Below are positions 7,730 to 59,792 of a stretch of 64,000 nt of DNA, one piece after another; position 1 is the stretch's first letter; the number at the start of each line of letters is the position of its first letter. The position numbers and the translations under genes were made by a program. Source of the stretch: Candidatus Latescibacterota bacterium (GTDB lineage: Bacteria; Latescibacterota; UBA2968; UBA8231); contig OZ244561.1 in assembly GCA_965217585.1 (NCBI GenBank), positions 6,176,001 to 6,240,000 of the forward strand. The letters run 5' to 3'. The notes under the pieces are model-generated. The model was not told the origin of the DNA. It saw only the letters and a list, made by a program, of their open reading frames with translations, and did no database searches.

Positions 7730-9628
7730 ATGGATACACGGCTGGGCGCGGCCAAACATGTTAGTACGCCGTGGGCCTTGCGCCGCTATCGGATGCTGGC
7801 GGAGTGGGAGCAGCGGGCGGCGGCGATTCGTCGGCACATTCTCGTCTGCGCGGGATTGTGGCCGCTGCCGGAGAAGACGCCGCTCAAGGCGCAGGTTTTT
7901 GGGCGGATTGAGCGGGAGGACTATGCGGTGGAAAAGGTCTTTTTCGAGAGCTTGCCCGGCTTTTTTGTCTGCGGCAATCTGTACCGGCCGCTGGGCGAGG
8001 GGCCTTTTCCGGCGCTTGCCTGTCCGCACGGCCACTGGGGGCTGGGGCGTCTCGAAAATACCGAGCTAGGGTCGATTGCGGGTCGCTGCATCAACTTCGC
8101 GCGGCAGGGCATGGTGGCCTTTTCGTACGACATGGTTGGCTACAACGACAGCGACCAATTCGTGCATCGGGAGATTGGGGGGCGGCGCGAGGCCCTGTGG
8201 GGGATCGGTGCGCTGAGCTTGCAACTGTGGAACAGCATTCGGGTGGTTGACTTCCTCGCCTCGCTGGCGGATGTCGATGCCGAGCGCATTGGCTGCACGG
8301 GCGCATCCGGTGGGGGGACGCAGACCTTTTTGCTAATGGCGGTTGATGAGCGGATTAAGGCGGCGGCTCCCGTCAACATGGTCTCGGCCCTTATGCAGGG
8401 CGGCTGTCGCTGCGAGAATCAGGGCCACTTGCGGCTGGACATCAACAATGTGGAAATCGCGAGTTGCATGGCGCCGAGGCCCTTGTTGATGGTGTCGTGT
8501 ACCGGCGACTGGACGGCGAACACGCCGGAGGTTGAGTTTCCGGCGGTGCGCGCGATCTACGGTCTCTACGGAGCGCAGAACAAGGTGAGCGAGGTGCAGA
8601 TAGACGCTCCGCACAACTACAACCAGCCGAGCCGCGAGGCGGTGTACGCGTTTTTCAAGCGCCACCTGCTCGGTGGGCAAGGACGGGTCGCCGAACAGCC
8701 GTTTGCCGTGGAGCAGGACGAGGATTTGCTGGTGTTCAACGGGCGCGAAAAACCAGCCCATGCGCTCGACTCGCAAGGGGTCTTTGCGGCCGTGATCGCC
8801 CGCAGCGAGAAGCGCTTGGCCGCGCGGTTGGCAGCAGCCCACATCCGGCGCTTCCAGCGGGAGACGCGCCCGGCGCTGGCGAGCCTGCTCGGGGTGGATG
8901 CCGCGCCTCAAGTCGCGGTGGAGAGCTTGGGATTTCGCCGCGAGGAAGGCTATGTGGCTGAGGAACTGGTTTTGGGGCGCGTGGGCCGAGGGGAATGGGT
9001 GCGAGCGACGTTTTTTCTTCCGCGTGGTCCCCAAGGCAAGGTGCCAGCGACGCTGATTGCCGATGCGCATTGGGGTGGCGATGAGCCGGGTGCGCTGGCG
9101 CAGGGCTTGTTGCAGACAGGGGGGGCCGTGCTGGTCGTCGCTCCCTTCCTGACCGATGGAGCAGAGCGGGAAGGGCACGACGAGGCGGATCCCCTGTACC
9201 ACACGTACAATCAGGCAACGATAGCTTGCCGGGTACAGGACATCCTCACGGGTCTGGCCTATCTGGGCCAGCACCTGCGCGTGGGCAAGCGCCACCTCGT
9301 CGGTCAGGGCGAGGCTGGCATCTGGTGCTTGTTTGCACGGGCGCTGACAGATGGCGTCAGTAGCACCGCGGTGGACTGGGACGGCTGCGATCTGGGCGAT
9401 GACGAAGCGTGGAGCGGAGCGCTTTTCGCGCCGGGGATTCGCGCGCTGGGCGATGTGCGGACGGCGCTGGCGTTGTGCGCGCCGGGGCGGCTGTTGGTAC
9501 ATGGGGCCGGGGAGCATTTCCCGGAGCACATCGCCAGACGATGCTATCGCGCGACAGGTAAGGGAGCGCAGCTTGTGGTTGAGGCTGAGGGGATGGGCGA
9601 GGATGCGATTGTCGAGTGGATCAACTAG
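7730..9628 (+). CDS. Acetylxylan esterase-like alpha/beta hydrolase (two-domain)
   Basis: VEKVFFESLPG, CPHGH, nucleophile motif CTGASGGG, HNYN; degenerate second hydrolase domain. Confidence 0.8.
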   Translation: MDTRLGAAKHVSTPWALRRYRMLAEWEQRAAAIRRHILVCAGLWPLPEKTPLKAQVFGRIEREDYAVEKVFFESLPGFFVCGNLYRPLGEGPFPALACPHGHWGLGRLENTELGSIAGRCINFARQGMVAFSYDMVGYNDSDQFVHREIGGRREALWGIGALSLQLWNSIRVVDFLASLADVDAERIGCTGASGGGTQTFLLMAVDERIKAAAPVNMVSALMQGGCRCENQGHLRLDINNVEIASCMAPRPLLMVSCTGDWTANTPEVEFPAVRAIYGLYGAQNKVSEVQIDAPHNYNQPSREAVYAFFKRHLLGGQGRVAEQPFAVEQDEDLLVFNGREKPAHALDSQGVFAAVIARSEKRLAARLAAAHIRRFQRETRPALASLLGVDAAPQVAVESLGFRREEGYVAEELVLGRVGRGEWVRATFFLPRGPQGKVPATLIADAHWGGDEPGALAQGLLQTGGAVLVVAPFLTDGAEREGHDEADPLYHTYNQATIACRVQDILTGLAYLGQHLRVGKRHLVGQGEAGIWCLFARALTDGVSSTAVDWDGCDLGDDEAWSGALFAPGIRALGDVRTALALCAPGRLLVHGAGEHFPEHIARRCYRATGKGAQLVVEAEGMGEDAIVEWIN

Positions 9629-48336: not shown

Positions 48337-48890
48337 TTATGACTTCAGCCAGAAATTATCAGCGTAGACGCCGGCTTTTTGCAATCGCTCCTGCGGCCTC
48401 AGTTGCCAGATATACTGGCATGCCCTATCGGCGGACTCATCGATGGAGGCGGTGGGTTGGTTGGCCAACCCGCGTCCTTTCACCCAACGCCATAAATGAT
48501 CCATCGCATTCAACTCCGGGGTGGCCCGCGGTAATAGACGAATTTCCATATTCAGGTCGGCCGCCAACCGCAAACTGCCTTCCGCTTTATGAGGCGAGCC
48601 CCGATCTTCAAAGAGGACGATCTGCCATCCGCGCCAGTGGGCGCGTATGAGACGCAGAAAAATCTGGTGGGTATCTTGCGTCCATTCCTGCGAAATCAGC
48701 AGCGCGACCTCGCCACTTTTGATGTTAAGCGCGCCGTGCAGAATCCGTTTGGCGCGCTGGCCGGTGATCGGCACCTGCACCGGTTGGCCACGGTGCCCAT
48801 AACAACTATACAACGGCGGCGTTTCGGTGAGAATGACTTCATCCAGCATGAGGATTACGGTGCGTTTCCGCGTCGCCAGCCCCTTTTTAA
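48337..48890 (-). CDS. IS630 transposase catalytic part (probably expressed by -1 frameshift at TTAAAAAGGG)
   Basis: LDE, EDRGSPH, LP...PELNAMDHLW. Confidence 0.78.
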
Positions 48891-49409
48891 CCCGCCTTTG
48901 GCTTGCCGCCAAGTCGGCGAGCGCAAGGACAAGGTATGCCGAGGCCGTTTCCATTTAATATCTAATCGAACCAGCGCTTGGCGGATACTAGACACCGAAA
49001 CGCAGAGGGTATGCTCTGCGTGTAGATACTGCGCCAATAACGACGCGGTCCATACCGTTGAATTGAGGCCGAAAAGACGAGGATCGTGATCGATGACTTC
49101 GTCTAGCAGGGGCTCAATCACGCCTTTTACTTTACCCGGTCGTCCACTGCGGGGGGCGGCTTGAAGGCGCGTCGCCAGATTCGAGATCGACGATTGCTCA
49201 AACAGCCGGATCCATTTATAGATGGCTTGACGCGTAACACACAGGCGTTGAGCAACATGAGTTACCGAATCGCCCGCCGCCACCCAAAGCAGGGCTTGCG
49301 CTCGACGTAAGACCATCGCATCCGGGGTTTGGACGACCAAAGCCTCCAACAAGCGGCGCTCGCGGCGGGGAAGGGAAAACGGAGTCATAAGCGGCCTCCG
49401 GGCATACAA
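48855..49409 (-). CDS. IS630 transposase N-terminal HTH part
   Basis: RRAQAL, VA..L.VTRQAIYKW, PRSGRP, WT...L; overlaps the catalytic ORF in the -1 frame. Confidence 0.8.
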   Translation of the reverse strand: MYARRPLMTPFSLPRRERRLLEALVVQTPDAMVLRRAQALLWVAAGDSVTHVAQRLCVTRQAIYKWIRLFEQSSISNLATRLQAAPRSGRPGKVKGVIEPLLDEVIDHDPRLFGLNSTVWTASLLAQYLHAEHTLCVSVSSIRQALVRLDIKWKRPRHTLSLRSPTWRQAKGGLKRGWRRGNAP

Positions 49410-49495
49410 CTAAGTTTAGAGGGCAAGGGAAAAGTGTCAACGGACTTTTTGTTAACTACTTAGTCCGTGCCCCATTGAACCTCGACGACATATCC

Positions 49496-50866
49496 TTAAT
49501 AGAGTGCGGTGGTGTATCCAGGATTGAGAGACAGAAAGCTATTAGGATTGGGAACGGCGAGGCGCTGGTCAACAGAGAGCAGATCAATATCGATCAACTG
49601 ATAGGGGTTCTCGCCATGGAGAAGGCGTAGCACTTGGGCTAGTGCCAGCGTAGCCGCTACGGTGCCTACGAAGGGTGCGCCGACTGCCTTACCAGCTAGA
49701 AGCGTAACGCCGCAGCGATCCAGCTCGCCACTTTTGAGCATCTCTTGATAGGCAGGGCGATCCGCAACCGTTTCGGAGGGTGTCGCCGACTTCCAAATAT
49801 CCGCCGCCGAACGTGCCTCTGGTAGTACGTGTAGGCGTATGGTACGGAAGTTTTGTTGCCCTCTGCCAAGTCCGGCCTCGACAACCAGATCAAATCCCAC
49901 TTGATCGAGTGCTTGCCGTCCTAGAGCATTATCCAGACCACACAACGCGATGGCTGGTTCTTCATTTTGGCGATGGAAGCTGTTATCGAACCGTCGCTCC
50001 TGCAACGCTGTCGCAAACCCGCGTCGTTCTGCCCAAGTAGCCATGGCACGGGTCTTTTTCTGGCCTGCCATCGCCGCGTCGCTCAAAATTGACGTGCTTT
50101 CGGTTGATGGCGTGATCTCGTCTATATCCTGCAGCACGATAGAGAGACTACTTAGCTCTTTATATGGCAGTAGCCCAAGACCCCAAAGATACGCTTGCCC
50201 TAGGTGTCCGAGCCCGATTAGCCAAAGCCGCGATGGGAGATAGGTTATCTGAGGCTCGCCTAGATCAGGCTCAAGCCAATTTATGTCTGCGGCAGGCCGC
50301 CACAGTGAGAATCCTATCGGCCGTCGTCCAGCCGCAGGACTGCCTCCTTCCACGAATAGGAAGGCTTCATTAACTGCGAGGCCAGCGGACAGCATAGCCG
50401 CCAATGGTACAGTCGGTCCTGGGGCCGGCATTAGCTTTGAGTGCGCCGGAAGGATACCACCTCGCCATCCGGCGACTGCCGTGCGTATGTGAAACCCGGG
50501 CCGCTGTCGACGAGGCCCTCCGCCAATAACAATAGTCGGCGTTCCATCGGCTGGAGGCGTAAGCGTGCCACCGAGATCTATCACAGCCTCGTGGAGTCTA
50601 CACCGCAGGGGTAGTGGCACCTTCAGCGGTACATCTAAGTCGCCTTCTACGGAAACCCCACCGAGGAACACGCGACGTCCCAGTGCAACTGCTGTCAACA
50701 ACGCAATTTGATTGAGTGAATTCCGCGACTCTCGGCCGTGGATGGTAAGCGCAAGGCGATAGCCTTGAAAGAGACTCTTGGCCTCGTCGAGACTCTTGGC
50801 CTCTCCGCTATCGAGTGCGTACTTGACTAAGCGGTGCAGGTTGTCGGCGTGTGGTTTGGCAGTCAT
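49496..50866 (-). CDS. bilD: E1 ubiquitin-activating-like enzyme (BilD-like)
   Basis: Degenerate N-terminal adenylation-like domain; IGLGHLG, QDID, LCGLDN..GR, EAGLG; candidate catalytic Cys385 in LDRCG; operon context. Confidence 0.8.
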   Translation of the reverse strand: MTAKPHADNLHRLVKYALDSGEAKSLDEAKSLFQGYRLALTIHGRESRNSLNQIALLTAVALGRRVFLGGVSVEGDLDVPLKVPLPLRCRLHEAVIDLGGTLTPPADGTPTIVIGGGPRRQRPGFHIRTAVAGWRGGILPAHSKLMPAPGPTVPLAAMLSAGLAVNEAFLFVEGGSPAAGRRPIGFSLWRPAADINWLEPDLGEPQITYLPSRLWLIGLGHLGQAYLWGLGLLPYKELSSLSIVLQDIDEITPSTESTSILSDAAMAGQKKTRAMATWAERRGFATALQERRFDNSFHRQNEEPAIALCGLDNALGRQALDQVGFDLVVEAGLGRGQQNFRTIRLHVLPEARSAADIWKSATPSETVADRPAYQEMLKSGELDRCGVTLLAGKAVGAPFVGTVAATLALAQVLRLLHGENPYQLIDIDLLSVDQRLAVPNPNSFLSLNPGYTTALY

Positions 50867-50876
50867 GGATAATCCT

Positions 50877-51395
50877 CTATAAGCCGATGTGAAGAAAGGC
50901 CCTCCGGGTAGCGGGCGTGATGGTTTGCCAACGCTTCGAGCCTTGATAGCGGTAAATACCGATTTCGCGTTTCGAAAGCGGGCGAGCGGCGAAGCGCGGC
51001 AGGATTATTGCCAAATGACCTGCCTGCGCAATCATGGGATAGGTGCGATCTGACTCGCTCTGCTGTGATCCGCTTGGATGGACATGAATGTCGGCCACGA
51101 CAGATAGCCCTCTCTCTTTACAAATTGCCCAGAGCGTCCCGAAGTATCGCCCGTCGAAGCGGACTATGCCGGTATCAAGGCAATGCGGATCGAGATCATC
51201 GTACAGGACGAAATCGGTAATACGGGCACGTTTGCCCTTGTAATGCCCAAGCAGAAAAGCTCCACTTTCCCTAGACTTGCCGTGACCGCGTTCCCGTAAG
51301 CAGATCAGCAAACGACGCCAGAGAAACCAGGAACAGGACAACTCATGTCGCGGTGCAAGAAGGCGGCGTATAGTCTCCGCTATGGAGAAGTTCAT
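50877..51395 (-). CDS. bilC: JAB/JAMM metallopeptidase (BilC-like deubiquitinase)
   Basis: ESGAFLLG and HVH...S..D JAMM motif; GGAG RBS before MNFS. Confidence 0.82.
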
Positions 51396-51816
51396 GGACG
51401 ATCTCCAAGTATTGAACAATTCCTTCTACTGGCCGCCATATTTTTGACGGCATCTCGGTTCGCCAATTTTCATGCCCAGCAAAGCTTTCACGGTCACAAG
51501 GTAGATACAGAGCAGAGCCATTTTTCCAGTCGGTGCGAAAAACCGCTGAGACACGACCTCCTTGGCCTTGTGGCCAGAGATTGAATTCCAAGATAGTATC
51601 TTGCCCAGGATCCCATGGGCCGCCTGTAGGCGGAGCTTGCGGATATCCCTGGCAATTGAAGCGCATAACGTATTGACGCTCATCCTTCGCGGGCACGGAG
51701 ATCTGGACAAAGGGCCAGTCGATGCGAATCAAGCGCCAGCGTCCTTCTACTTGCCCGAGGCGGAACGCAGCCTTGGCCACGTCCGCCTCGAATGCTCGCT
51801 GGTCAGGAGCGCTCAA
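51343..51816 (-). CDS. bilB: E2 ubiquitin-conjugating-like protein (BilB-like)
   Basis: GYPQAPP E2 motif; candidate catalytic Cys107 in LYLPCDR; 4-nt overlap with the Ubl gene. Confidence 0.78.
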
Positions 51817-52322
51817 GCTACGCTCCCGGTCGAGCCGTTCACCCTCTCGTCGGGGGCTAGGTCAAATGCTTGGCTGCAAGCGGGGCAATCCACCAGTGTG
51901 CCAATATGCGTCCCTGGAGTCGGCCTTTCGTGAGTACCGACCATTTGCAAAGCATACTCACCGGCGTCTTTTGGCTCCATGCCGAATTCCTTTTCGGCTG
52001 CCCAGCACTTGACACGGGCTATGGTCGCGCTTGGCCCGAAGTTGCGCTCGACGGTACGACCATTGAAGGTCACGCTGACTTTGACGAGACAACAGCGATG
52101 CAGGTGGATCTTTATATCCGTCCCCTTAACGCAATCGCTCACCTTCTCGTCTTCGTCGAGTGGATCGTCTTTGTCTTCCAAGAAGATGCACACATCGGCG
52201 GCGAGGCAATGCTTGTCGATCAGCTTGGTTTTGACAGTTGCGAATGTGGCGTCATCCTCAACTTCGACATGCTGTATCTCGCGGGATCCTTCACACTGAT
52301 AAAACAGATCGAGTGTAGCCAT
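51813..52322 (-). CDS. bilA: ISG15-like tandem ubiquitin-like protein (BilA-like)
   Basis: 169 aa, two beta-grasp-sized halves; ends ERVNG(163)-STGSVA; AGGAGG RBS. Confidence 0.78.
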
Positions 52323-52381
52323 AATACGATCCTCCTAGGCTAGAGCGAAGCTCCATTGCCCGTCTCTGCCCTTCACTCTAT

Positions 52382-52411
52382 TAATCGGGTAGGAGGGTAG
52401 AAAGCGGAAAG
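52382..52411 (-). promoter_or_regulatory. Putative alternative-sigma promoter CTTTCCG-N17-CGATTA upstream of bilA
   Basis: Same boxes and spacing occur upstream of the sigma gene (57358-57387). Confidence 0.7.
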
Positions 52412-52429
52412 TCGAGGTAGAAAAACTTT

Positions 52430-55400
52430 TTATGGGAGAGTCAGTGGCCCACGCGGCGTAGCAGCACAGACGAAAAAGTGCGGGCATCGCGGGCATGTTA
52501 CTTCGTTGATATTAGGTGGGAATTGCCCCTTCGCAATCTCTCTCAACATCTCGTCACTTCTATCTCGTCGTTTGTTGAGCTTATTCGACGAGATCAGTAC
52601 GTCATCGACCATCTCATCCATAAGATGCAGTGCTTGGACCATCGCACGAGTACCGAAATGGGCCTGACCAGCCAATCGATAAAGAGTGTAGTCGAGGCGA
52701 TCATATTCATCTGTGCGCTTGCGTCCTGTTCGGATCTTGCGTAGTGAGATCTTTCCGTCCGGCATATCAGCTATTTCGTCCGGCTCCACGACCACGCGAC
52801 CATTTGGAAAATCTACTGCTAACGGCTCAACCTCACGGGAACGCCGTTCAGTGCTGGCCCTGATTAGGGCCCCAACTAGTTGCAAAGCAAGGCGGCGGTG
52901 TTCGTCAGCGGAATTATGGTCGACAGGCCCATGTTTACGCCAAATTGTATCGAAGGCGGCTTCAGCCTCGGAGAGCGTCGGCTCAACTTCGCGTCGGCGC
53001 TCGGACACCCATTGGATGAGTTTGTAGAGGCAGTTATGGGTTTGAGAATAGGCAGTCGCTTTATGGATACCACCAAGCCCCAACATATGGGTGTAAAAGA
53101 AACGGCGAGGGCATTTCTCATAGGAGATGAGTGTACTATCTGTGACGTGCCATTCGGTGGATTGCGTTACTTGGATAGGCATCGGGCTCTGCATGTGGGC
53201 TGGTCTCGGTAAGACCACTGGATGGGCAATTTTGTCGATTGTCCTCTCTGGTAGCCAATCTAGAAAACGGGACGGAGATCGATTTCTGCCGTTGGAGCTT
53301 CGACGCGCCAAGTGGAGGCACAGATGGGTTTGCGCTCGAGAGAGCGCAACGAAAAACAGGCATTCCTCCTCGTGTTCGTGATTCCGCTTGGCTTCTTCCG
53401 AGACCGAAAAGCCCTCTGATCCCTCAGTCATGCCGATGGGCGGTGGGCATCGTACTCCACGGTACGAAGAGGGGAAGCTCGAAACCGTCAGGCCGGGTAC
53501 ATGGACTGCTTCAAACTCTAGCCCCTTACTACCATGAACAGTCATCAGCCGCACTGCATCTAGGTGGAGTGCGGCTGATGGCACTTGGCGCAAATCCCGC
53601 TCTTCGGCGAGTAGTACGAGCCGTCGGATACGATCCAGCATCCGCTGAATCGGCAAACCTGTGCCGGTCGGAGGCCTCTCGCGGACGAAGTTAAGGAATT
53701 GCCAAATCGCGACGCTCCGAATGTAGTCGGTGGTTGTCGTGGCTTGGGCCATCTCCCGCACAAGGCTAGTGCGATCAAGCAGATACGTTGAGATAAACTC
53801 CCATGCGGACACGCTTGATGAGAGCCCCGACAGATCCTGCGCGAGGCGAGCAAGTGCTGATGAGCCATCAGGCGAGATACCTTGAGCCTCAGCGAGCGTC
53901 TCTAGACCCGAAAGGGCCGGCTGATTGCTATCTCGCAGATGGTGCACTGCGGTATAGACATCTTGCATCGAAAGACCATAGCGAGGCATTGCTCCGACCC
54001 GCGCAAGGCCATTACCAAACGGATCAACCGCGAGGCTTAGAAGTGCTAGTAAATCACGCACTTCCTCGCGTTCGAACAAGCTGCCAAGATGCAAAACAGG
54101 AATGCCGTATGCCTCGAGGGCTGCGGCGATTTCATTCAGACGACGATTTGAGCGACAGAGCACGGCCTGATCACGGAGAGGAACGCCCGCGCATTCGAGG
54201 TCTCGGATGCTTCCGGCGATACCTCCGCCTTCGTCGTCGGGGGTGTCGTAGTACCGGACTTCCGGTTTTCCGAGACCAGAACCTCGGTCAGCGGCAAGGC
54301 CGAGTGGCAACATGCTCTCGGATGCACCCATCCGGGGAGCAACACTGACGAAACTGGCGACGATCTGCTCTGTCGATCTGTAGTTGATGGCGAGTTGGTC
54401 AATCACTGCACCTGGATAGTCGTCGCAAAAACGAGCCATATTGGTAGGGGACGCTCCGCGGAATCGGTAAATGGACTGGCGTGAGTCACCGACTACCCAC
54501 AAGCGTTTGCCATCTCCAGCGACCGCTTTTAACAAGCGTGCGCTCGCCCGGTTTACGTCCTGATATTCGTCGACGAGAAGATGGCGATGCCGTAGTTGAA
54601 TAGCCTGCTTGAGTGCTGGATCGGACTCTAGGAGCAATGCGGGCTGCATGATAAGGTCGCCAAAATCGACGGCACCCTGATCGCGCTTGGCTTGTTCGTA
54701 TAGATCATAGATGTCGGCAATCTCCAAGCACTTCTCGGCTGCCTTGTGAGCCTCATCGTCGTCTGCGGTCGTTTGCATAGCCTCGGCGAGCTTTCGATAG
54801 CGGATTCGGTCAACAAGTTCATCCTTAGCCCGCGAGATGGCAGGGATCACGTCTCGCAACACCATCGTCGGATCCCAGAAGTTGCGATAGTGGACAAGGG
54901 GCAGCGTCGGAAGGCTATCCTCAAGCACATCGATCGCATCACTACGGTCGAACAAGACTGGATTGGACGGTAGACCGAGGCGGTCATAGTGGCGCCGTAT
55001 AAGATCGAGGCCGAAAGCATGGAACGTCCCGATCCAAATACGTGCAGCGGCTTCTGGCACTATGGCCACCAGTCGCTCCAATAACTCACCGGCAGCCCGG
55101 TTCGAGAAGGTAAGGACGAGCAAAGAAGCTGGGTCAACGCCTTCTGCCAAGAGCGATTCAACGCGTTTTACCAGTGTCCGTGTTTTTCCGGTTCCCGGCC
55201 CAGCCTGAAGAAGGAATGGGGCGTCGCGATGTGTGGAAGCCCGGTCTTGCGACTGGTCCGGACTCGGTGTATAAGACGAAGCCATCGCCGGAGCTACTTC
55301 CTCCACCATCGGAAGTAGAAGGGCATCAAATATCTGCTGTCGGACGAGCGCCTTTGGCAAGTTCATGTGCGAGGCGATAGCTGAAGCGGTCATGGCCTTA

Positions 55401-55855
55401 GCTATGTAGAGCCGACGTGCAAAGCTCCGGGGTAGCAGAAATTCCCGAGCGAAAACATTGGCCTGTAGTTCACGCCGTTCCCGAGTGCCATAGTCCTCGA
55501 CACGCTGCAACCCAACGGGTACTACCTCAGTTGAACGGGATAGATCGATGTCATCCTTCGTACAAGCCGTCGAATCAGCGTGGATGTGTGCATGTCCAAG
55601 TTCGTGAGCCACAAGTAATGTACGGTCAATGATATCCCCGGCCATTTCACAGCAGATCGTACCGCTCTGTTCGTCGAACACCGCCCGGGCATTTTTTAGA
55701 GCAGGATCGCCCGGCGCAAGATAGACGAGTTCAAGGTCAAGGTGAGCCACAGCGGCCGTAATAAGTGCCGTAGTATCCACAGGATCAGTCCCCGCCTCGA
55801 TAATCTTATCGCGCAGATGCGCTGCGGACTTTCGGATTGGCTTGAAGGCTTCCAT
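52430..55855 (-). CDS. ImmA/IrrE (M78) metallopeptidase - UvrD/PcrA SF1 helicase - Fe-S PD-(D/E)XK-like fusion
   Basis: AHELGH + ELQANVFAREFLLP; AGPGTGKT, LVDEYQD, VGDSRQSIYRFRGA, NYRS, TVHGSKGLEF, VALSRA; CPRRF...CPRCPHFFVC. Confidence 0.88.
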   Translation of the reverse strand: MEAFKPIRKSAAHLRDKIIEAGTDPVDTTALITAAVAHLDLELVYLAPGDPALKNARAVFDEQSGTICCEMAGDIIDRTLLVAHELGHAHIHADSTACTKDDIDLSRSTEVVPVGLQRVEDYGTRERRELQANVFAREFLLPRSFARRLYIAKAMTASAIASHMNLPKALVRQQIFDALLLPMVEEVAPAMASSYTPSPDQSQDRASTHRDAPFLLQAGPGTGKTRTLVKRVESLLAEGVDPASLLVLTFSNRAAGELLERLVAIVPEAAARIWIGTFHAFGLDLIRRHYDRLGLPSNPVLFDRSDAIDVLEDSLPTLPLVHYRNFWDPTMVLRDVIPAISRAKDELVDRIRYRKLAEAMQTTADDDEAHKAAEKCLEIADIYDLYEQAKRDQGAVDFGDLIMQPALLLESDPALKQAIQLRHRHLLVDEYQDVNRASARLLKAVAGDGKRLWVVGDSRQSIYRFRGASPTNMARFCDDYPGAVIDQLAINYRSTEQIVASFVSVAPRMGASESMLPLGLAADRGSGLGKPEVRYYDTPDDEGGGIAGSIRDLECAGVPLRDQAVLCRSNRRLNEIAAALEAYGIPVLHLGSLFEREEVRDLLALLSLAVDPFGNGLARVGAMPRYGLSMQDVYTAVHHLRDSNQPALSGLETLAEAQGISPDGSSALARLAQDLSGLSSSVSAWEFISTYLLDRTSLVREMAQATTTTDYIRSVAIWQFLNFVRERPPTGTGLPIQRMLDRIRRLVLLAEERDLRQVPSAALHLDAVRLMTVHGSKGLEFEAVHVPGLTVSSFPSSYRGVRCPPPIGMTEGSEGFSVSEEAKRNHEHEEECLFFVALSRAQTHLCLHLARRSSNGRNRSPSRFLDWLPERTIDKIAHPVVLPRPAHMQSPMPIQVTQSTEWHVTDSTLISYEKCPRRFFYTHMLGLGGIHKATAYSQTHNCLYKLIQWVSERRREVEPTLSEAEAAFDTIWRKHGPVDHNSADEHRRLALQLVGALIRASTERRSREVEPLAVDFPNGRVVVEPDEIADMPDGKISLRKIRTGRKRTDEYDRLDYTLYRLAGQAHFGTRAMVQALHLMDEMVDDVLISSNKLNKRRDRSDEMLREIAKGQFPPNINEVTCPRCPHFFVCAATPRGPLTLP

Positions 55856-55859
55856 CTGT

Positions 55860-56519
55860 TTAGAAACTCAGAAGTTGGTGCTGTTGGTCGTCGCTTAGCC
55901 CCGAACTCTTAACAGCCTCGACGAAGCTTTGTCGTTGGTTGCTGTCAGGCTTGTCGGCGGCCTTGTAAAACTGACGACTAGTATTTGTGCTTGGTGCAGC
56001 AAAGTAGGCAGTTACTAGGCTGATCGGAGTATTGAGCGCATCCGCAAGACACTGTAGAAAACTGCTAGGGATGGTATCCGGTTCAATTTGACGATCTCGC
56101 AGCTTGGCGACGAAAACGGTGTTTGCACCGATCCCGTCTGCTAACGCACGAAACGCTGCACGACTTAGTTCGGCGAAGGGATTGGGAGCATCTGCAACTT
56201 CCGGCGACGGAGCACGGTTGCTGGTCAGCTTGGTTGCTTGACGCACGGCGTGTAGGCGATTGTGGAATCGGCTCATTGCACGCGAGACTACAGGACTCAC
56301 ACGGTTCAGATCAATCTCAGCCTTTGAATCGACTTCAGGCTCGGGTCGAAGGGCATCCATAGCGAGTTCGATGGCAAACTCCGTGAGAGAATCGGCATAC
56401 TTCGGGAAGCGCCTAACGAAATCGTCAAGCAGCTCTGCGTCGGGTACACGCTTCGCTAGCGAAAACTCGTACAGCACATCGCGCAACGGTGCCGCGCTGG
56501 GGGTCAAATTCATGGTCAT
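55860..56519 (-). CDS. Hypothetical protein with C-terminal XRE-like HTH (putative anti-sigma/peptidase substrate)
   Basis: Coupled to sigma (4-nt overlap) and helicase (4-nt gap); FRALADGIG...FVAKLRDR...FLQCLADALN resembles a Cro/XRE fold. Confidence 0.55.
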   Translation of the reverse strand: MTMNLTPSAAPLRDVLYEFSLAKRVPDAELLDDFVRRFPKYADSLTEFAIELAMDALRPEPEVDSKAEIDLNRVSPVVSRAMSRFHNRLHAVRQATKLTSNRAPSPEVADAPNPFAELSRAAFRALADGIGANTVFVAKLRDRQIEPDTIPSSFLQCLADALNTPISLVTAYFAAPSTNTSRQFYKAADKPDSNQRQSFVEAVKSSGLSDDQQHQLLSF

Positions 56520-57307
56520 GTCTCCTTTTTTAAGTGTGAAAGTTTCTCTGCTGCTCTTGAGAGACGATTACGAATGGTTCGACCTGAGACATTACATATT
56601 GTCGCTACAGTCACCTCATCAGGATTATTAGATTCGATTTTGTACTCCATGACATGACAGAGGATCACAGCCTTGCGCTCGTCATACGGCAAGGTATCAA
56701 TCGCTTCGTATATCTCTCTTAGCAGGACAGAACTCTCTGCTGTATCCTGACTCCTCAACGCTTCTATAAGTCGGGTGGGGACCTCCTTATGGGGAGGGCT
56801 ATATTCGACGTCATCGGCGTGGTCTGATGGGAACACTAATGGCTTGAGGCGGGCTTTTTCACTTCGCACGAGGTCGGTGTAAAAAGTATAGAACGCCCGG
56901 TTGAAGCGGCATTCAAAATAGTCAAGATCGTCGCGATTTTCTTCCGTGCCATCAGTGGCAAACAACTCGCCAAACTGTCCAAGTACTTCCTCCCGGACAT
57001 CCACAGCAGTCGGGAGTTTGTTGGCCGGGATTTTGGCTAATAAGATTGCTTCACATCGGGTGAGCAAGACAGGAAGCACTGCCTTGAAGACGGCGTCGTT
57101 GCTATTTCGACGTGCGTCCCGGATTAGATGGACCAGACACTCAGAATATACATAATCGGGTGCCTGATGATCGGCAACAGCGAGGTGGCATAGGAGCGTC
57201 GCTGAACTCTGGGCAAGAATCTTATTGATCTGTGCCTCCACTCGATGAGGACGGACATAGAGATTTCCAGTTTTATCGCGTTTGGTCAATGGACAAACCA
57301 TTTTCAT
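56516..57307 (-). CDS. Sigma-70 family (ECF-like) RNA polymerase sigma factor
   Basis: Region-4 signature AIDTLPYDERKAVIL...VATICNVSGRTIRNRLSRAAEKL; AAGGAG RBS. Confidence 0.72.
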   Translation of the reverse strand: MKMVCPLTKRDKTGNLYVRPHRVEAQINKILAQSSATLLCHLAVADHQAPDYVYSECLVHLIRDARRNSNDAVFKAVLPVLLTRCEAILLAKIPANKLPTAVDVREEVLGQFGELFATDGTEENRDDLDYFECRFNRAFYTFYTDLVRSEKARLKPLVFPSDHADDVEYSPPHKEVPTRLIEALRSQDTAESSVLLREIYEAIDTLPYDERKAVILCHVMEYKIESNNPDEVTVATICNVSGRTIRNRLSRAAEKLSHLKKET

Positions 57308-57357
57308 TCTCCTTTATATGAAGCGGATACCGGGCATACAGATCCCTTATACTTCTA

Positions 57358-57387
57358 TAATCGTATTAAGTTGGGGAAACCGGAAAG
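57358..57387 (-). promoter_or_regulatory. Putative autoregulatory promoter CTTTCCG-N17-CGATTA upstream of the sigma gene
   Basis: Matches the motif upstream of bilA. Confidence 0.7.
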
Positions 57388-57402
57388 ATGCCTAAACTTT
57401 TT

Positions 57403-58224
57403 CTAATTTGCAGTATCGACTGGAGCACCAGCAGCTTGTAAAGGTGCCCTAAGCTGCTGACCTGCCTCCACTTCTGGATACTCCAACCACTGCCGTCCAT
57501 CGAGCGTATTCCCACCCGCTTTAGGAGTGCGCCCACCCCATTGCTTAAAGAAAAAGGCGACGCGCTGGGCCTGACACCGGTCGCGCAATGCCCGCACCCA
57601 TTCTGCTTGCACCGGACGCGCTCCCGGCCCGCTCTCACCCCCGGCGATTACCCAATGAATACCCGCGAAATCCACCGCGCCGATTGGACCGAGCAACGGC
57701 TCGAAGGAAACGAAGCGCACGGAGGCATTGGTCTGTTGCAAGTGCCGGAGGCGCGTCAAAGCCGCGTGGTTTTCGACGGACACGCCGAGCCAGATATGCG
57801 AGGGAGCCGCTTGGCCCCGGCGATGCCCTGAGCTTGCCGAAGCACCAGTCGAAGGGTAGCGCTCTTGGACGAAACGGCGCATCAGTGAACTGCGCTTGGT
57901 AAGCACTTGATAGATATGCCAATCGGCGCGCTCCATGGTGTCGAATACGCGCTCAATGTACTCGGTGGGAATGTCCTTGTGGAAGAGATCGCTCATCGAA
58001 TTGACGAAGATGAGCTGTGAACGCCGCCAGTGCATGGGTTGTTCGAGGCGCTTGGGGCGAAGGGTTAGATCAAAGCCCGACTCGAAAGGGTGTCCCTCGA
58101 CGCCGCGGAAACGCTCAGAAAGGCGCTCGGCATAGCAATGGTCGCAGCCAGCGCTAATCTTCGTGCAGCCGGTGGCTGGGTTCCAAGTGCTGTTAGTCCA
58201 CTCGATAGTGCTTTTGCGAGACAT
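57403..58224 (-). CDS. DUF5131 (phage Gp37/Gp68-like) radical-SAM-like protein
   Basis: IEWT..TWNP.TGCTKISAGCDHCYA, FVNSMSDLFH, LTKR, SFEPLL, GGESG, FFFKQWG. Confidence 0.88.
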   Translation of the reverse strand: MSRKSTIEWTNSTWNPATGCTKISAGCDHCYAERLSERFRGVEGHPFESGFDLTLRPKRLEQPMHWRRSQLIFVNSMSDLFHKDIPTEYIERVFDTMERADWHIYQVLTKRSSLMRRFVQERYPSTGASASSGHRRGQAAPSHIWLGVSVENHAALTRLRHLQQTNASVRFVSFEPLLGPIGAVDFAGIHWVIAGGESGPGARPVQAEWVRALRDRCQAQRVAFFFKQWGGRTPKAGGNTLDGRQWLEYPEVEAGQQLRAPLQAAGAPVDTAN

Positions 58225-58263
58225 GAGAGACCTTTACGCAACCAAAAATCATAACTGAACATA

Positions 58264-58291
58264 ATTGTAGTATTTCCCGGTCCAATGTCAA
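58264..58291 (-). promoter_or_regulatory. Sigma70-type promoter for the DUF5131 gene
   Basis: TTGACA-N16-TACAAT, 40 nt upstream of the ATG. Confidence 0.6.
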
Positions 58292-58459
58292 GGTGGCCTT
58301 GGGTACGGGCGACCTGCCGAGGACAGCGACCCCCTCCGCATGCACGATAATCCCGCTATCGAGTTGACAATGCTCAGAGCGTCTATCTTATTGACACATA
58401 AGTACTGAACCGCCGCCTGACGGAAGGCGCAAATTCTTTGTGGGCATTAGGTTATATCC

Positions 58460-58801
58460 ATGCATACTGTAGTGGAATTACCTGAATATTTGCGCCGGGC
58501 AGACCGGTTGCTATCGGAGGATGAGCGCCAAGAGCTGGTCGATTATCTGGCAGAGCATCCCGAAGCGGGTATCATAATGCGCGGCATGGGAGGGATCAGG
58601 AAGCTCCGATGGGCACGCACGGGGATGGGCAAGCGCGGCGGTGTACGGGTTATCTACTACTACCACAACGAGCAGATGCCGCTTTACCTCTTAACATTGT
58701 TCGGCAAAGGAGCGAAAGACGATCTCAACTCCTCTGAGCGTCGTGCGTTGCGCGACTTCGTCCACAACTTGATCGAGACATGGAGAAGGCCCCATGAGTA
58801 G
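58460..58801 (+). CDS. RelE/HigB family toxin
   Basis: P.AG.IM.G.GGIRKLRW...GKRGGVRVIYY, LLTLFGK. Confidence 0.88.
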   Translation: MHTVVELPEYLRRADRLLSEDERQELVDYLAEHPEAGIIMRGMGGIRKLRWARTGMGKRGGVRVIYYYHNEQMPLYLLTLFGKGAKDDLNSSERRALRDFVHNLIETWRRPHE

Positions 58802-59087: not shown

Positions 59088-59125
59088 AGACCGCTCGACA
59101 TGCTTTTTGGCTCTTCTTCGCCCTC

Positions 59126-59222
59126 TGATTATCGGGATGAATATCCTAAAGTGACGCAAGCAGATTTGGACCGTGCGGTATTCCGCGTTGGACTCAAGCC
59201 TGCGCCACGTAAGCAACGCATC
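59126..59222 (+). pseudogene. Remnant of a BrnA-like antitoxin N-terminus
   Basis: DYRDEYPKVTQADLDRAVFRVGLKPAPRKQRI stops where the RHH part (ITIxLD...) would begin; in frame with the Uma2 gene. Confidence 0.5.
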
Positions 59223-59243
59223 GCCAGAGAGAGGACGGCAACC

Positions 59244-59792
59244 ATGGCTATCCCCAATCCCGTAGTCAAGTTTACCTACGAAGACTACCTGAATACGCCG
59301 GAAGACAAGCGCTACGAGCTTCTGGACGGAGAGTTGGTTCCGACTCCTGCACCTGGAGAACGTCACCAGAGCATTTCCATCCTGCTAGGATCAAAACTGT
59401 TTCAATTTGCGTCTGAGAATAGCTTGGGGCGGGTCTATCTCGCGCCTTTTGACGTGGTGCTGTCGGACATGGACGTGGTGCAGCCCGATCTGCTGTTCGT
59501 CTCCAATGAGCGCGGCCACATCATCACCCCTGCAAACATTCAGGGGGCGCCGGACTTGGTCGTCGAAATCCTGTCCCCCTCCACAGCCGAACGCGATAAG
59601 ACGTTCAAGCGTGCGCTATATGCCAGACACGGCGTGAACGAATACTGGATGGTGGACACTACCGCAAAAGACATAACGGTCCTGTTGCTCGGCGAGCGCG
59701 GATACGAGATCGTGGATACCTACGGCGAAGGAGAGACCTTGACTTCGCCGACCTTGCAAGGCTTCGCGCTGAATATCGGCGATCTATTCTAA
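59244..59792 (+). CDS. Uma2 family endonuclease (copy 2)
   Basis: Near-identical to 46816-47364, same length (549 nt). Confidence 0.9.
   Translation: MAIPNPVVKFTYEDYLNTPEDKRYELLDGELVPTPAPGERHQSISILLGSKLFQFASENSLGRVYLAPFDVVLSDMDVVQPDLLFVSNERGHIITPANIQGAPDLVVEILSPSTAERDKTFKRALYARHGVNEYWMVDTTAKDITVLLLGERGYEIVDTYGEGETLTSPTLQGFALNIGDLF

Follow-up and report, generated by a model that had tools for sequence, protein, structure and literature searches.

A bipartite motif upstream of both an extracytoplasmic function-like sigma gene and bilABCD is probably the cognate promoter of that sigma factor

We analyzed a 64,000-nucleotide (nt) stretch of contig OZ244561.1 (positions 6,176,001-6,240,000) from Candidatus Latescibacterota bacterium, hereafter the window, whose positions are used for all coordinates below. 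On its minus strand, a trio of genes encoding a sigma-like factor, a 219-amino-acid (aa) partner and a peptidase-helicase-nuclease fusion is followed by bilABCD, a ubiquitin-like conjugation operon, and a 30-nt bipartite motif precedes both the sigma gene and bilA. We propose that these two sites are the cognate -35/-10 promoters of the neighboring sigma-like factor, which resembles the extracytoplasmic function (ECF) type, and that they link this factor to Bil; we put the probability of this reading at roughly 80%. The protein itself probably binds core RNA polymerase and reads these boxes. The conservation and placement of the motif, the co-variation of its boxes and the sigma-like nature of the protein emerge from comparison. 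A first-pass annotation of this DNA had already inferred a cognate promoter, and the comparison supported that idea through conservation, placement, shared rare variants and a sigma-4 domain.

The two sites read as that annotation had given them. Site 1 is CTTTCCG gtttccccaacttaata CGATTA (minus strand, 57387-57358) and site 2 is CTTTCCG ctttctaccctcctacc CGATTA (minus strand, 52411-52382), each with a 17-nt spacer and with the common extension TTTCCGnTTTC. In the predicted promoter of the sigma operon (57358..57387, minus strand), the -35-like TTTCCGG occupies 57386-57380 and the -10-like CGATTA occupies 57363-57358; in the predicted bilABCD promoter (52382..52411, minus strand), the corresponding boxes are TTTCCGC at 52410-52404 and CGATTA at 52387-52382. 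From the usual ECF geometry, transcripts would begin about 6-8 nt after CGATTA, with predicted start sites near 57351 for the sigma operon and near 52375 for bilABCD, and the bilA mRNA would open with a structured leader. The -10-like boxes end 50 nt before the sigma ATG (57307) and 59 nt before the bilA ATG (52322). The gaps that hold the sites measure 95 nt (DUF5131 stop at 57403 to the sigma ATG) and 107 nt (helicase stop at 52430 to the bilA ATG), and every other junction of the module is at most 10 nt or overlapping, which confirms the earlier remark that these are its sole sizeable intergenic gaps. No sigma-70-like site was found on the minus strand in either gap. Upstream of each promoter lies an A-tract, AAAAAGTTT, at 57394..57402 on the sigma side, where it may be UP-element-like, and at 52423..52431 on the bilA side (both minus strand), where it overlaps the helicase stop codon. 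Its distance to the -35-like box is unequal, 6 nt at the sigma site and 11 nt at the bilA site. The AAAGTTT tract that had been described upstream of both sites is indeed present at both as AAAAAGTTT, but it is better described as a recurrent A-tract.

A scan of the whole 7,323,734-base genome, which the first-pass annotation had suggested, returned only two exact matches to TTTCCG-N17-CGATTA in these 7.32 Mb, and both are the sites of this module, on the same strand and 5 kb apart. The sigma-like gene is present as a single copy. When one mismatch was allowed, the motif matched 21 times in the genome compared with 24 times for a reversed control pattern. With up to two mismatches, just these two matches were found in the 64-kb window, a count that the shuffle control leaves uninformative (mean 1.4; two matches reached in 38 of 100 shuffles). 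The degenerate pattern TTWCCGS-N16-CGATYR had five genome matches, the other three being inside open frames of 650, 836 and 693 codons.

At least 352 relatives of the sigma-like protein were found in the protein collection at E <=0.001, nearly all of them about 260 aa long. A one-genome-per-species scan with an alignment of 25 relatives (A3) yielded 80 loci, which span Latescibacterota, Alpha-, Beta-, Gamma- and Deltaproteobacteria, Acidobacteriota, Binatia and Planctomycetota and also include Longimicrobiales (Gemmatimonadota-like), Chthoniobacterales (Verrucomicrobiota-like) and Myxococcales. According to tblastn searches with the window's eight proteins, sigma, partner and peptidase-helicase are kept together in all sufficiently long loci. 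In the nearer group (loci L011-L059), sigma identity is 36-97% and BilABCD follows the trio. In the farther group (L061-L090), sigma identity is about 30% and other ubiquitin-like conjugation genes follow, namely Multi_ubiq, DUF6791-ThiF, DUF6527, or Prok-E2_E and JAB-ThiF; these sets match the Bub operons as described in papers from the Corbett laboratory. The link to Bil that had been drawn from the window holds; what the sigma factor is linked to is a conserved unit of three plus four genes, and the same trio precedes Bub-like operons too. The arrangement of sigma gene, promoter and Bil or Bub operon occurs across many bacterial phyla.

We scored candidate sites against TTTCCGG, a 15-17-nt spacer and CGAT(T/C)(A/G), with a maximum of 13 and a site called at 11 or above, in the 130 nt before the sigma gene and in a 190-nt stretch spanning the 3' end of the helicase gene. 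Loci L053, L060 and L065 (partial sigma matches, contig ends) were excluded from the counts, and loci too short on one side were dropped there. Upstream of the sigma gene, a site was present in 46 of 48 Bil-linked loci, the window included, at a distance of about 55-75 nt, and in 11 of 28 Bub-like loci; 19 low-scoring loci had no sigma-upstream site out to 3 kb. Ahead of the effector operon, close behind the third gene, it was present in 39/41 Bil-linked and 25/25 Bub-like loci (64/66 together). Controls rarely reached the threshold: 4 of 1500 windows of 190 nt drawn from within the helicase gene did so, as did 6 of 1320 shuffles of the intergenic regions. Lack of conservation at homologous loci had been named at the outset as the result that would speak against a cognate promoter, and the motif proved to be conserved there (46/48, 39/41 and 25/25). 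Across both strands of all loci (2,429,880 bases), 113 sites scored 12.5 or more. The two expected places account for 87 of them; of the remaining 26, 24 share a single fixed location within the sigma gene and two precede a caspase-like gene.

The anatomy of the aligned sites is that of a promoter. Column information forms two peaks, cTTTCCGGgtt and gCGAT(T/C)Aa, with a low-information spacer between them, and the consensus is cTTTCCGGgtt-N12/13-gCGAT(T/C)Aa. Judged from the alignment, this two-peak anatomy is that of a -35/-10 pair with a hexamer spacing of 16 nt. The orientation is single, and the distance from the motif to the start codon is fixed at about 50-75 nt. Among unique sites, AAAAA occurs within 40 nt upstream of 24/44 sigma-upstream sites, 10/37 Bil-linked effector sites and 20/24 Bub-like effector sites, and of 0/10 Bub-like sigma sites, compared with 417 of 20000 background 40-mers. 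The tract lies mostly 16-19 nt before the -35 box; at the Bub-like effector sites, part of it belongs to the last codons of the helicase gene.

Evidence for a reader encoded by the cassette comes from the variants of the boxes. L034 carries CCATTA at both promoters, L057 carries GTTTCGG-N15-GGATTA at both and L058 carries CTTCCGG...CGCTTA at both, while L047 has CTTCCGG with CAATTA at one promoter and with CAATTG at the other. Rare variants altered at both promoters of one locus point to a reader that travels with the cassette. In the 46 loci where both sites are present, the boxes of one locus differed by 0.83 mismatches on average, compared with 1.45 for permuted pairs, and none of 5000 permutations was as low; since relatedness is uncontrolled in this permutation, the single rare variants weigh more than the averages.

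The sigma-like factor (263 aa; 56516..57307, minus strand) has an N-terminal extension, a sigma-2-like domain at about 54-155, a disordered linker at 156-176 and a sigma-4 domain at 179-262. Its C-terminal domain scored 31.3 bits in Pfam PF08281 (Sigma70_r4_2), above the cut-off of 25.7, and the family profile matches sigma-4 of the EcfG-type sigma 5uxx_A at E 6.8e-7. An AlphaFold model built from alignment A3, with a mean predicted local distance difference test score (pLDDT) of 79.6, contains a helical N-terminal domain, the disordered linker 156-176 and a C-terminal domain. The top Foldseek matches of this model are all ECF sigmas, over 189-226 columns; the best is M. tuberculosis 9m9e_F (E 8.3e-4), followed by 6jbq_F, 6dv9_F, 1or7_A and others, with E. 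coli sigma-E, SigL, AlgU, SigH, SigW and CnrH among the factors matched. In VIA-align 2, the sigma-4 domain reached Z values of about 10 with a root-mean-square deviation (rmsd) of 1.0-2 Å over 62-69 residues (3vfz_A: Z 10.2, rmsd 1.0 Å, 62/62 residues; 2h27_D: Z 9.8), and the two-domain alignments cover model residues 54-263. Together, the model and its matches suggest that a sigma-2 domain is present. The earlier designation as an ECF-type sigma stands as regards sigma-4 (PF08281) and the ECF matches in Foldseek, but the protein falls below the TIGR02937 cut-off and has no region 2 at the sequence level. Since sigma-4 alone was detected by sequence, we term the protein ECF-like rather than a filed ECF member.

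The alternative that survives best, although we consider it unlikely, is that the boxes form an operator for a conventional factor, either the XRE-like domain of the partner or the sigma-like protein acting as a plain helix-turn-helix (HTH) activator or repressor. Partner residues 109-179 resemble the XRE-type HTH domains of DdrO, CapH and ImmR, which are repressors cut by M78 peptidases (full scan with VIA-align 2, Z 5.0-6.9), and the sigma-like protein has no region 2 match at the sequence level. However, these XRE values are under the tool's own caution level, whereas the N-terminal domain of the sigma model aligns with ECF sigma-2 in Foldseek. The two boxes also differ in sequence and repeat each other in neither inverted nor direct orientation, unlike the usual operator of a dimeric HTH protein, and the hexamer spacing, single orientation and distance to the start codons fit a -35/-10 pair.

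Slightly less probable still is the possibility that bilABCD owes most of its expression to transcription reading through from the sigma operon, in which case the second copy would be a conserved element of weak activity or a vestige. The bilA -35 box lies only 18 nt beyond the helicase stop, with no terminator-like site in between. However, the bilA-side copy is the better conserved of the two (39/41 and 25/25), and it is kept even in Bub-like loci that have no sigma-upstream site.

We consider it very improbable that the sites are read by a host alternative sigma, sigma-28-like or general-stress, and that the neighboring sigma-like gene is coincidental. The sigma-28 (FliA) promoter consists of TAAAGTTT, about 11 nt, and then GCCGATAA; CGAT(T/A)A resembles the -10 element GCCGATAA, and the AAAGTTT tract recalls the sigma-28 -35 element. 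Nevertheless, the tract lies about 30 nt from CGATTA instead of about 11, and at unequal distances in the two sites; the sigma-28 reading of the tract was rejected on this geometry. In addition, the motif moves with the cassette across phyla and 28 plasmid records, it occurs twice only in this genome, and its rare variants shift together at both promoters of a locus. Finally, the non-significant shuffle control at up to two mismatches and the discovery of the motif after the fact would allow a chance resemblance, an explanation that conservation at homologous loci with controls and genome-wide uniqueness make negligible.

Several observations nevertheless weigh against cognate promoters read by the sigma-like factor. 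Typical ECF -35 elements contain AAC, which the -35 box TTTCCGG lacks. The protein scored 34.4 bits in NCBIfam TIGR02937 (sigma70-ECF), below the cut-off of 42.9, with only profile positions 85-162 matched, and neither Pfam nor the profile search gave a Sigma70_r2 match or any sequence match outside sigma-4; the sigma-2 assignment comes from a predicted model (pLDDT 79.6) with Foldseek E values of only 1e-3 to 1e-2. Judged from its modeled, weakly XRE-like fold (Z 5-6.9), the partner could bind DNA instead. Since no terminator-like site was found in the gap before bilA, transcripts that run on from the helicase gene could also contribute to bilABCD expression. No recognizable site was present within 3 kb upstream of the sigma gene in 17 of 28 Bub-like loci, and autoregulation from an upstream site is therefore not universal. 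The motif counts and the within-locus co-variation include related loci and carry no correction for phylogeny. Lastly, the RNA-library contigs described below reveal no transcription starts and no strand, and they may stem from carried-over DNA.

The partner (219 aa; 55860..56519, minus strand) belongs to no family; no match was found in Pfam, NCBIfam or PADLOC. It consists of an N-terminal helical part, a variable linker, the weakly XRE-HTH-like segment at about 109-179 and a conserved tail, and it is conserved along its length except in the variable linker. Its model (pLDDT 82.9) had no Foldseek match at E <=1e-3. In the VIA-align 2 scan, the N-terminal domain of CapH (7t5u_A, Z 5.2) and DdrO (6rnz_B, Z 5.5) both gave weak values, and because the Z values are below the caution level of the tool, the XRE-like fold is a lead only. 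The third gene of the trio (1141 aa; 52430..55855, minus strand) encodes a fusion protein that joins three parts: an M78 peptidase with HELGH at 84, a UvrD-type helicase with GTGKT at 221 and DEYQD at 429, and a PD-(D/E)XK nuclease carrying CxxCxxxxxC at its C-terminus. The peptidase scored 25.5 bits in PF06114 compared with a cut-off of 22, and its HExxH (H84, E85, H88) is invariant in 24/24 aligned sequences. Four metatranscriptome runs from one study contained contigs that are 95-99% alike and cover only 54296-56869; they reach neither the promoters nor bilABCD, which speaks neither for nor against transcription there. One of them (54951-56310) bridges the partner/helicase junction and three (56339-56869, 56173-56596 and 56028-56601) bridge the sigma/partner junction, which agrees loosely with co-transcription of the trio. 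One such contig, from a related strain, has a 12-nt in-frame insertion in the peptidase/helicase linker at window position 55301.

From these features, we provide a putative mechanism for the cassette. Copy 1 of the promoter would drive the sigma operon (sigma, partner and peptidase-helicase-nuclease) and create positive autoregulation, and copy 2 would drive bilABCD. We propose that the partner is both anti-sigma factor and peptidase substrate and that the fusion is a DNA sensor. In the resting state, the partner may keep the sigma factor inactive, a proposal for which we see about even odds. More tentatively, by analogy, the RecB/AddA-like part of the fusion might sense DNA ends or single-stranded DNA (ssDNA) from phage or damage and switch on the M78 peptidase, so that the partner would be cleaved and the sigma factor freed; this activation path is modeled on CapP/CapH, IrrE/DdrO and ImmA/ImmR. 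With one private promoter type before both operons, the seven genes would form a self-contained, horizontally portable unit that needs no host-specific promoters.

A cultured Rhizobium leguminosarum carries the unit on plasmid NZ_CP090102.1 (L095): all seven genes are there, together with exactly two matches to the motif, which lie 61 and 62 nt ahead of sigma and bilA. In its annotation, six of the seven cassette genes are labeled hypothetical, and an annotated 48-aa hypothetical coding sequence (8329-8475) overlies the promoter and leader of the sigma gene. Homologues of this gene on other plasmids are labeled response regulator, sigma-24 or sigma factor-like HTH. The cassette occurs on 28 plasmid records, of which 20 are conjugative.

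Additional copies of the motif were found in some relatives. Many carry a third copy inside the sigma gene, about 565-585 nt from the gene start and about 200 nt before the partner gene (for example L019:8585, L062:5642 and L076 at about 8576), where Phe/Tyr-Arg and Ala-Ile-Asp/Glu codons at the start of region 4 spell TT(T/A)CCGG and CGAT(T/C)G. The window and its nearest relatives have no in-gene copy (score 8.0). The third position of the in-gene copy is T or A, and in Bub-like loci this base equals that of the effector promoter in 12/12 and 11/13 loci (23/25, related loci not collapsed), L082 and L084 being the exceptions. In L040 (6149-6178) and L041 (6156-6185), an extra motif stands before a gene for a 505-aa caspase-domain protein (Peptidase_C14) just upstream of the cassette, and in L040-L042 a match to a looser pattern follows bilD and precedes an unassigned frame. 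The caspase-like gene and the frame after bilD are likely extra regulon members.

The four effector genes of the window lie on the minus strand: bilA (ubiquitin-like, 169 aa, 51813..52322; PADLOC BilA E 2.4e-53), bilB (E2-like, DUF7665, 157 aa, 51343..51816; BilB E 9.9e-62), bilC (JAB deubiquitinase-like, 50877..51419; BilC E 5.5e-67) and bilD (E1-like, 456 aa, 49496..50866; BilD E 3.3e-167). The listed TTG start of bilC is probably upstream of the true start. The gene order bilA-B-C-D (Ubl, E2-like, JAB, E1-like) is that of BilABCD, type I Bil. Directly after the -10 box, the 5' leader of bilA contains a conserved nested hairpin (52326..52380, minus strand), which a covariance model built from 15 proteobacterial leaders recovers with 18.5 bits (E 0.05). 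The model places the element at the same position in 28 sources, the window and 27 other loci, with one off-target match. In the leader alignment, 93.9% of cells pair and 9/13 pairs have changes on both sides; 0/500 shuffles reach any of five measures and slid controls have at most two double-sided pairs, in an alignment that was fitted to the structure, which favors it. The G-U pairs are on the sense strand, which points to an RNA structure. Single-sequence folding of the window's two leaders was not exceptional (z -0.87 for bilA and -0.23 for the other), RNAalifold on MAFFT leader alignments, whose arms are off by 1-2 columns, recovered only an inner hairpin of four pairs in the Bil leaders and no structure in the Bub-like ones, and no Rfam family matched window positions 49000-58500 at E <=1. 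The bilA leader may be a second, post-transcriptional control point.

In several relatives of the L011-L059 group, the 3' arm of the leader can pair with the ribosome-binding site instead. Single-sequence folds of Bub-like leaders (L061-L089, about 10-55 nt after the effector -10) contain an outer stem (CCTTCG/CGAAGG, CCTTAG/CTAAGG and others), an inner GC hairpin and an AAGGA ribosome-binding site within the 3' arm.

Beside the cassette lies a DUF5131 (Gp37/Gp68-like) gene (57403..58224, minus strand), assigned by Pfam and matched in PADLOC by the candidate-defense families PDC-M41B and PDC-M30B (E about 1e-99). A near-consensus sigma-70-like site, TTGACA-16-TACAAT, precedes it at 58291-58264. 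It was rejected as a module member because it is present in only 1 of 80 related loci. The flanks further contain an IS630-family transposase fragment (48337..48954, minus strand), a RelE-like toxin gene (58460..58801, plus strand) and a Uma2-family endonuclease gene (59100..59792, plus strand), a setting that suggests an island or mobile context for the module.

Several known systems resemble parts of this cassette. With group 4 (ECF) sigmas such as sigma-E/RseA and SigW/RsiW, it shares a sigma factor of two domains by predicted fold, a putative bipartite promoter before the operon of that factor, a partner gene probably transcribed together with it and a regulon of few genes. It differs from them in its sub-cut-off TIGR02937 score, a 50-residue N-terminal extension, a 7-residue insert in sigma-4 and the TTTCCGG -35 box; moreover, the partner is cytoplasmic, with a weak XRE-like fold and no known anti-sigma domain, and the presumed protease is fused to a helicase-nuclease. 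CapH and CapP are an XRE repressor and an ssDNA-activated M78 peptidase that regulate CBASS (antiphage defense by cyclic oligonucleotide signaling), type II Bil and Bub operons (PMC13373217, 10.1101/2023.09.26.559546, 10.1101/2024.11.21.623953). With a single exception, the capH and capP genes are described as running divergently to the operon that they regulate (10.1101/2023.09.26.559546). Common to both arrangements are an M78 peptidase with an intact HExxH, a small partner (here with weak XRE-like matches, CapH among them) and a place directly upstream of ubiquitin-like conjugation operons. In contrast, here a sigma factor would activate without removal of a repressor, the peptidase shares one protein with a UvrD helicase and a PD-(D/E)XK nuclease, and three genes run co-directionally with the effector operon in place of two stand-alone divergent genes.

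In Myxococcus xanthus, the ECF sigma DdvS and the transmembrane anti-sigma DdvA control CBASS and type III-B CRISPR-Cas (PMC11506125). An ECF-type sigma, several cognate promoters, a defense island and a proposed proteolytic release are shared with our cassette, whereas DdvA sits in the membrane and combines an anti-sigma domain that binds zinc with a TPR-CHAT module in the periplasm. Our cassette is instead cytoplasmic, has a helicase-nuclease as its proposed DNA sensor and is tied to Bil or Bub. The type III-E CRISPR Craspase is said to come with Csx30, Csx31 and CASP-sigma (Strecker et al. 2022), and its protease reportedly cuts a partner that holds an ECF-type sigma. Its sensor is an RNA-guided CRISPR complex and its protease is of another family; the likeness would be that of a defense-linked protease that cleaves a partner holding a sigma factor. 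BilABCD was reportedly described as the bacterial ISG15-like anti-phage system by Millman et al. in 2022. Compared with it, our four effector genes are alike, and the three-gene regulator and the promoter pair are an addition.

No description of the trio or its promoter was found in the literature searched; lists of operon neighborhoods in the supplements to the Bil and Bub papers could mention the genes. The main text of one Bil preprint (10.1101/2023.09.04.556158) contains none of the terms helicase, UvrD, promoter, upstream or regulat, and the mentions of sigma displayed for it refer to a reagent supplier. In related work, CapH/CapP is given at 25 operons of type II Bil (10.1101/2023.09.26.559546), the Bub preprints give CapW at 43 and CapH+CapP at 168 of 544 operons, and CapK+CapS is added as a further regulator (PMC13373217).

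Overall, these results bear on how anti-phage systems that can harm their host stay silent until needed. The regulators described in the papers examined, CapW/BrxR, CapH+CapP and CapK+CapS, are all repressor-based, whereas our evidence points to an activator-based private sigma. What appears new from the comparison of loci is a variant that combines an ECF-type autoregulated promoter with an M78-gated regulator of immune operons. We speculate, with somewhat less than even confidence, that the trio represents a fourth class of controller of an adjacent pathway, in which a DNA sensor joined to an M78 peptidase destroys an XRE-like anti-sigma and a private sigma turns on Bil or Bub, with the structured leader and the in-gene promoter as further layers. 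The promoter pair offers a ready reporter read-out for the trigger of Bil or Bub, and the trigger signal of Bub is called unknown in those papers. Searching for the 30-nt motif is also a simple way to extend the regulon, for example to the caspase-like gene of L040 and L041. A private sigma with its own promoter would free the seven-gene unit from host promoters, which could explain its spread over phyla and conjugative plasmids.

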